From Leucoraja erinacea (Eukaryota): a stretch of 64,000 nucleotides of DNA. A program made the translations under genes and the position numbers. The notes under the pieces were generated by a model, which worked only from the letters and a program-made list of their open reading frames with translations, had not been told where the DNA came from and did no database searches. Shown one piece after another: positions 30,346-30,454 of this stretch. Location: NCBI RefSeq assembly GCF_028641065.1, contig NC_073406.1, positions 7,316,001-7,380,000 of the forward strand, read 5' to 3'. The stretch's first letter is position 1. Each line of letters begins with the position of its first letter.

Positions 30346-30454
30346 TATCTTCTTCTTGCATAAGTTGTAGATCAAGTGGCATGAAAAACTCATCTATTTG
30401 TGCACGTCTGGTTGAAACAGGGTGGACCACGTGAAGGTTGCAATCTCCCACCCC
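30346..30454 (-). mobile_element. ~109-bp non-autonomous retroposon with the 5' half of an HDV-like ribozyme
   Basis: TSD (C)ATTTTCCA and tail GCAAGAAGAAGA. The 5' end reads GGGGTGG-GA-GATTGCA-ACC-TTCACGT-GGT-CCACCCT-GT. Confidence 0.75.

Follow-up and report, generated by a model that had tools for sequence, protein, structure and literature searches.

The window analyzed here is a 64,000-nucleotide stretch of the Leucoraja erinacea genome (contig NC_073406.1, positions 7,316,001 to 7,380,000 of the forward strand), and coordinates below count from its first base. Sequence comparison delimits, on the minus strand, an insert of 109 bases that lies within the reading frame of a plus-strand LINE, which we take to be CR1-like. 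The features at the locus are as follows.

30220 to 30700, plus strand: reading frame of the host LINE (RT region), unbroken across the insert over these coordinates, which are the ones examined
30346 to 30454, minus strand: short non-coding retroposon copy, a LINE 5′ end joined to a LINE 3′ end, with two internal deletions
30454 to 30462, minus strand: 5′ copy of the 9-bp target-site duplication, whose final base doubles as G1
30448 to 30454, minus strand: 5′ strand of P1, with G1 as the first base of the predicted cleavage product
30439 to 30447, minus strand: J1/2 (2 nt) and the 5′ strand of P2 (7 nt, 30439 to 30445), whose partner is deleted in this copy
30426 to 30438, minus strand: P3 (3 bp, 30436 to 30438 with 30426 to 30428) and the 7-nt L3 (30429 to 30435)
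30417 to 30425, minus strand: 3′ strand of P1 (30448 to 30454 pairing with 30419 to 30425), then G (the predicted P1.1 partner) and U
30411 to 30416, minus strand: junction of a 13-nt deletion (J4/2 and the P2 3′ strand gone), inside a 5-nt microhomology
30399 to 30408, minus strand: 5′ arm of a stem; intact copies have its 3′ arm in the 3′ UTR, and this copy has lost that arm by deletion
30362 to 30376, minus strand: stop and last few codons from the ORF of the partner LINE (3′ part of that LINE)
30346 to 30361, minus strand: (AAG)n tail
30337 to 30345, minus strand: 3′ copy of the target-site duplication
31402 to 31595, minus strand: neighboring element of a second family (family B), with a CPEB3-like head that has P4 and a 6-bp P1, and an 11-bp duplication at 31391 to 31401 and 31595 to 31605

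Because the final base of the 9-bp duplication is also G1, the boundary of the insert is ambiguous by 1 nt. The head has the layout given in the original prediction: counting from 30454, a 7-bp P1 that opens with a G-U pair, a 2-nt J1/2, one strand of P2 and a 3-bp P3 follow one another on the minus strand, and the 7-nt L3, identical in alignment to the L3 of the Rfam CPEB3 consensus, is followed by GT, as had been noted. The complete HDV-like descriptor does not match this copy, in which the P2 3′ strand is deleted and J4/2 is lost; a second deletion has removed about 17 nt of the 3′ part. The claim that these parts are missing therefore stands, while its extension to the catalytic C is ambiguous by position, since one C is left at the deletion junction within the 5-nt microhomology; the site is destroyed all the same, and the copy is likely dead, in agreement with the earlier expectation. 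A half-descriptor comprising P1, P3 and L3 finds a single site in the window and a mean of 0.11 matches (maximum 1) across 100 shuffled windows, which by itself is modest evidence; the reality of the pattern is settled by the family to which the copy belongs.

A DNA search of the genome (2.19 Gb) returned 1,391 candidates, 40 of which were scored. The copies of this family (family A) are about 125-140 nt long, share a starting G-run and end in (AAG)n followed by the duplication. The intact core has 908 exact genome matches, compared with 0 for a reversed-pattern control, and contains the continuation that had been predicted for intact copies, C(G/T)AA-TGCAATC: C-N-A-A and the P2 complement stand only 5 nt after the GT, so that the complete fold takes up 54 nt, without P4. 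At the position of P4, family A has 5 unstructured nt, versus 19-28 nt in five relatives, and the lack of P4 places the head among the minimal HDV-like forms. In the intact copy L082, the descriptor recovers a nested double pseudoknot consisting of the 7-bp P1 with its first G-U pair, P2, the 3-bp P3, L3 and the P1.1 partner G, an arrangement that is also the majority state across 62 sampled copies. Energy folding of the 54-mer gives no signal (z 0.06), the method being unable to model pseudoknots, and folding of the whole element predicts an alternative structure. Separately, a stem of 8-10 bp joins the segment just past the ribozyme to the 3′ UTR (L082:1534-1612; window 30399-30408; z of the body fold -3.82); in the full LINE, such a stem would place the two ends side by side, a possible reason for the frequent capture of the head.

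To avoid selecting copies by their head, loci were sampled via the 3′ end, and the 90 loci examined among 220 matches comprised 62 short headed elements, 22 LINE 3′ ends and 6 others. The exact core pattern occurs in 14 of the 62 short copies, which extrapolates to about 4,000 copies genome-wide; mean divergence from the majority is 5.7%, and every core feature is retained in only 12 copies. Nucleotides 1-9 are kept in 58/62 and C44, the first base of J4/2 (followed by N-A-A), in 57/62. Short heads and LINE heads alike have, as their majority state, the full set of 17 pairs, C44 and both adenines of J4/2, while free positions vary; outside CpG sites the commonest variants fall in J1/2, at the free base of J4/2 and at one P1 pair, where U-A becomes U-G and still pairs. 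Target duplications, searched from -3 to +15 relative to G1, were detected in 38 copies (none in the other 24), being flush with G1 in 23, off by one in 10 and off by two in 5, so that the anticipated clustering of 5′ ends at G1 is borne out within 2 nt in all 38. Their length is 11-12 bp in 28 of these cases and 9 bp in the window copy. The base preceding G1 is T in 33 and A in 15 of the 62 copies, suggesting a target preference. Judged by this comparison, the window insert is likely a dead member of a family of retroposons with predicted ribozyme heads.

Walking upstream from the shared 3′ ends leads to a LINE of about 3.1 kb in the same genome. L186 is a full-length copy, with the head at its 5′ end in sense orientation and an 11-bp duplication on both sides, and the better-preserved LINE heads L190, L193 and L194 likewise lack P4. 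The frames of broken copies match the Pfam families APE and RT and, weakly, zf-RVT. Longer protein relatives (the best 120 of 1,026) are mostly about 1,000 aa, the top one being 72% identical; no RNase H family was found at E 0.1 in any of three full-length relatives, nor among the precomputed domains of the best 120 of 1,026. The relatives listed by the protein searches include no named Vingi protein, and a PDB search returned no RTs other than those of L1, R2 and group II introns. The parent thus appears to be a Vingi-like LINE with a single ORF, encoding APE and RT and no RNase H, a placement made by architecture and not by a tree with named references. The short elements share both their 5′ and 3′ ends with this one autonomous LINE, lack an ORF and possess a target-site duplication and a simple-repeat tail, as bipartite non-autonomous LINEs (SIDEs) do; in the window subfamily, about 90-105 nt from the start of the LINE are fused to its final codons and 3′ UTR.

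Two further observations concern the LINE itself. An intact relative of 1,019 aa (P0001), 72% identical over the RT query with the next matches at about 55% or less, may point the way to kin that are close or have moved horizontally. Long LINE copies also often have an inverted head: of 11 copies retrieved, in part for this inversion, 7 are of this kind (L185, L189, L190, L192, L193, L194 and L195), as are 6 of 30 loci in one set; L081, considered as a LINE start, was rejected when its head proved inverted. The G1 end of such heads, 3-15 nt short, abuts a truncated sense body (e.g., L193, G000:C24:16449500-16455500), and one duplication spans the whole copy in four of six tested, which looks like twin priming with run-off at the 5′ terminus of the RNA. 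Of seven inversion points, five are at nt 65-81, the region in which the short elements have their junction too.

The LINE origin of the head bears on the reading of family A as an ordinary SINE headed by a small RNA, in which the HDV-like pattern would be a product of chance. Such a SINE would fit the rate at which the half pattern occurs in shuffled windows and the silence of Rfam, which reports no family A match at gathering scores in the window and none at E up to 1 on L077, L082 and L186. That same search finds no tRNA, 5S, 7SL or snRNA in a head that is the LINE's own 5′ end, the full descriptor matches L082, and homologous LINEs have covarying heads at the same place; the small-RNA reading is largely refuted by the LINE origin and the full descriptor, and we find it scarcely credible. 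As Rfam misses the family A head, similar heads have probably gone unseen elsewhere.

The 13-nt deletion that removes J4/2 and the P2 3′ strand sits between two 5-nt near-repeats. The deleted form is rare, with 4 and 14 genome matches for two patterns and 0/62 in the 3′-end sample, and among all fetched loci 19 distinct copies have it, most of them starting at G1. These copies could represent a ribozyme-dead subfamily, the window copy among them, that amplified by itself, cleavage being dispensable for mobility. The deletion label was mapped on a tree with 52 of the 58 intended rows, 17 of them deleted and 35 intact (six intact rows failed the pattern and were dropped; five rows are half-filled, deleted rows are 1 nt shorter and the bootstrap had not converged). 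It is slightly clustered, as a separate dead subfamily would lead one to expect (15/500 shuffles equally low), but requires 11 changes, at least three of them forced by well-supported branches, and a single origin occurs in 0% of 200 bootstrap trees. Since deleted copies occur on distinct subfamily backgrounds and that of the window clusters with three sisters that are intact (99/100), the deletion recurs and arose at least three times, and a self-amplifying dead subfamily appears very improbable. We infer that it arose by RT slippage at the folded pseudoknot or by repair after insertion; loss during copying or after insertion would explain how a dead copy still starts at G1.

Related LINEs were sought by a scan of metagenome contigs, which gave 75 loci; the 26 that reach the N-terminus were searched for heads. 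A complete HDV-like descriptor lies just upstream of the ORF in 6 of the 26 (5 distinct), compared with 0/26 control stretches inside ORFs, and by this descriptor search the head is absent from the other 20. Each of the six heads has 23-33 nt at the place of P4. A relaxed descriptor added zero heads and lost L354, which has a 5-bp P2 (5/30, control 0). Across six heads (family A, family B and four related LINEs), 13 of 17 pairs change on both sides and 0/96 cells are unpaired, although the related heads were selected by a pairing descriptor, so that the independent evidence is their position and not their pairing. The covariation that had been proposed between the stems of the window insert and those of the ribozyme near 31.5 kb has firmer support from these heads than the window sequence could give it, with the difference that P1 of the latter family is 6 bp and not 7. 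L348 and family A have P3 in common. With its relatives keeping P4, the parsimonious account from these alignments is that family A would have lost this helix.

The head of L337 scores 55.6 bits on the CPEB3 model RF00622, versus 40.8 bits for the family B copy in the window. At L337:3117-3189 (the same in L338:2199), a Vingi-like LINE on a metagenome contig opens with a CPEB3-like ribozyme, and five more bases past P2 are common to it and family B. Family B itself has 2,251 candidates and an (AAG)n tail as in family A, and in the window its G1 position is occupied by A. The LINE from which family B would derive was sought at 30 loci among 166 tail matches: 26 have the head, 4 are truncated and, on inspection, zero have LINE sequence upstream. 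Family B may borrow the enzyme of family A.

The family A element is present in sequencing runs of seven organisms, the indexed ones listed including no RNA run. RNA runs from a relative, picked by species label (organism C; 1-5% of each run read), were compared with the intact copy L082, in which G1 is position 1480. In the single-cell run X21, 1,510 reads carry right before G1 a loose 5′ part corresponding to a 30-nt oligo that includes its own GGG (agreement 0.8), presumably the template-switch oligo, versus 279 flank-like reads one base before the G1 position. These oligo counts come from the loose-end rows listed; the table of sites where many molecules begin lists none for L082. X23 and X24 have 491 and 614 reads at G1, with a weaker oligo-like consensus (agreement 0.42-0.44), and DNA contigs have flank-like sequence before G1. 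A further 318 reads in X21 have poly(A) at the element tail, which may reflect priming on the A-rich tail. G1 opens a G-run, and oligo artefacts are a known risk at G-runs; the extra GGG in the X21 reads argues against simple oligo invasion. The family A reads fit a short RNA that spans G1 to the tail, which cleavage and a promoter start would yield alike. Family B, with its 6-bp P1 and about a tenth of family A's depth, shows only flank-like loose ends at G1 on the same three runs plus X22 (33-72 reads), that is, read-through only, and so the RNA signal at G1 did not generalize.

A start at G1 fits equally well with a head that is an internal promoter, its ribozyme fold inactive since the loss of P4 and now vestigial. 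Template switching at G1 is what a capped start would yield, family B lacks a G1 signal despite a complete-looking fold, and the Pr77 sequence of a sister clade acts as a promoter according to passages of PMC3383444. Set against this are the pairs and J4/2 bases held as the majority state in short and LINE heads while free positions vary, and the activity of P4-less forms elsewhere (parts of bioRxiv 2023.06.13.544163); promoter and ribozyme can, moreover, coexist, as Pr77 illustrates. A head serving as a promoter and nothing else is in our judgment unlikely.

The explanation we prefer is that the insert is quite probably a copy, now damaged, of a short non-coding element that combines the 5′ end of a Vingi-like LINE with its 3′ end; intact copies of this element start with a 54-nt predicted P4-less HDV-type ribozyme likely to cut just before G1. 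It builds on the family, its anatomy, its LINE parentage, the insertions flush with G1 and the relative's RNA reads beginning at G1; from these, folding, cleavage, mobilization in trans and a mechanism of deletion are predicted. A copy would be transcribed within a host transcript or by a promoter of its own, and the head would cut itself free of upstream RNA. The APE-RT protein of the LINE would recognize the common 3′ end and the (AAG)n tail, and the RNA would be inserted by target-primed reverse transcription with an 11-12-bp duplication. In the window copy, J4/2 and the P2 3′ strand would likely have been lost by slippage over the 5-nt microhomology, during or after copying. The original prediction had overlooked three aspects of this picture: the lack of a P4 helix in the family, the derivation from a Vingi-like LINE of the same genome and the recurrence of the deletion.

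Short retroposons with ribozyme heads are an established idea. In trypanosomes, passages of PMC3383444 and PMC4035085 describe the pairs NARTc/L1Tc and RIME/ingi, headed by Pr77/L1TcRz, and Pr77 is both promoter and ribozyme (PMC3383444). As in those systems, family A is a short, internally deleted element with the 5′ HDV-like head and 3′ end of an autonomous LINE, a predicted cut before nucleotide +1 and 11-12-bp target duplications; unlike them, its host is a cartilaginous fish, its partner LINE has no RNase H match and its tail is (AAG)n, and its 54-nt head lacks the P4 of the 77-nt Pr77. The parent also resembles Vingi LINEs, described in parts of PMC13708176 as compact single-ORF APE-RT elements that, unlike Ingi, lack RNase H, and it likewise spawns bipartite non-coding derivatives; passages of Kojima 2018 (PMC5786205) credit RTE, Ingi, Vingi and R2 with producing derivatives of this kind and do not include Vingi among the clades with known ribozymes.

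The compact P4-less form has so far been reported mainly from phages and metagenomes. Parts of a preprint on theta ribozymes (bioRxiv 2023.06.13.544163) describe P4-less HDV-like ribozymes from these sources that cleave in vitro, and a search of human, mouse and protist genomes with matches only in phages and a few bacteria. The family A head resembles drz-Mtgn and theta ribozymes in lacking P4, in the catalytic C standing first in J4/2 and in a size of about 50-55 nt, and differs in heading a eukaryotic retrotransposon instead of being metagenomic or associated with phage tRNAs; because relatives of family A keep P4, its loss was likely independent of those forms. With the mammalian CPEB3 ribozyme (RF00622), family A shares an identical L3, a first G-U pair, 7-bp P1 and P2, a 3-bp P3 and C-N-A-A; its stem sequences differ, it has no P4 and no Rfam match, and family B and L337 are closer in sequence. 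Passages of a review (PMC8256844) report that the CPEB3 sequence is conserved in mammals and that HDV-like folds occur in lamprey, in lancelet and at the 5′ ends of retrotransposons; passages of PMC5753468, PMC3391268 and PMC11331408 contain nothing that decides the comparison.

What appears to be new here is the predicted P4-less form on a vertebrate LINE and a putative link between Vingi and CPEB3, neither of which was found in print. Ruminski 2011 may reportedly have described Vingi heads before, calling them Ingi; together with Kojima 2011, Repbase entries and supplements it lies outside the literature search, which found no report of family A, of a retrotransposon ribozyme without P4 or of CPEB3 descending from Vingi. 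A broader joint reading is put forward tentatively, as a serious possibility on which we would not yet rely: Vingi-type LINEs would generally carry HDV-like ribozymes in animals; the shrunken, active 54-nt P4-less enzyme of family A would release a discrete ~135-nt RNA in vivo and be the first of the minimal HDV-like ribozymes for which a function in eukaryotes is known; and the mammalian CPEB3 ribozyme would be the domesticated head of a related LINE, an origin suggested by family B and L337.

According to the theta preprint (bioRxiv 2023.06.13.544163), it was undetermined where minimal HDV-like ribozymes without P4 come from and what they do biologically; family A offers a minimal predicted ribozyme whose task would be plain, with natural variants in the thousands and signs of use at the RNA level. 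Vingi 5′ UTRs are already part of gene-writing platforms, according to passages of PMC13708176, so a self-cleaving head, if real, would matter for template design. As the same LINE group has heads nearly identical to the CPEB3 ribozyme, the origin of the human ribozyme is directly testable. The insert in the window is likely no more than a dead fossil, and its value lies in the minimal head of its family and in the CPEB3 link of the LINE group.
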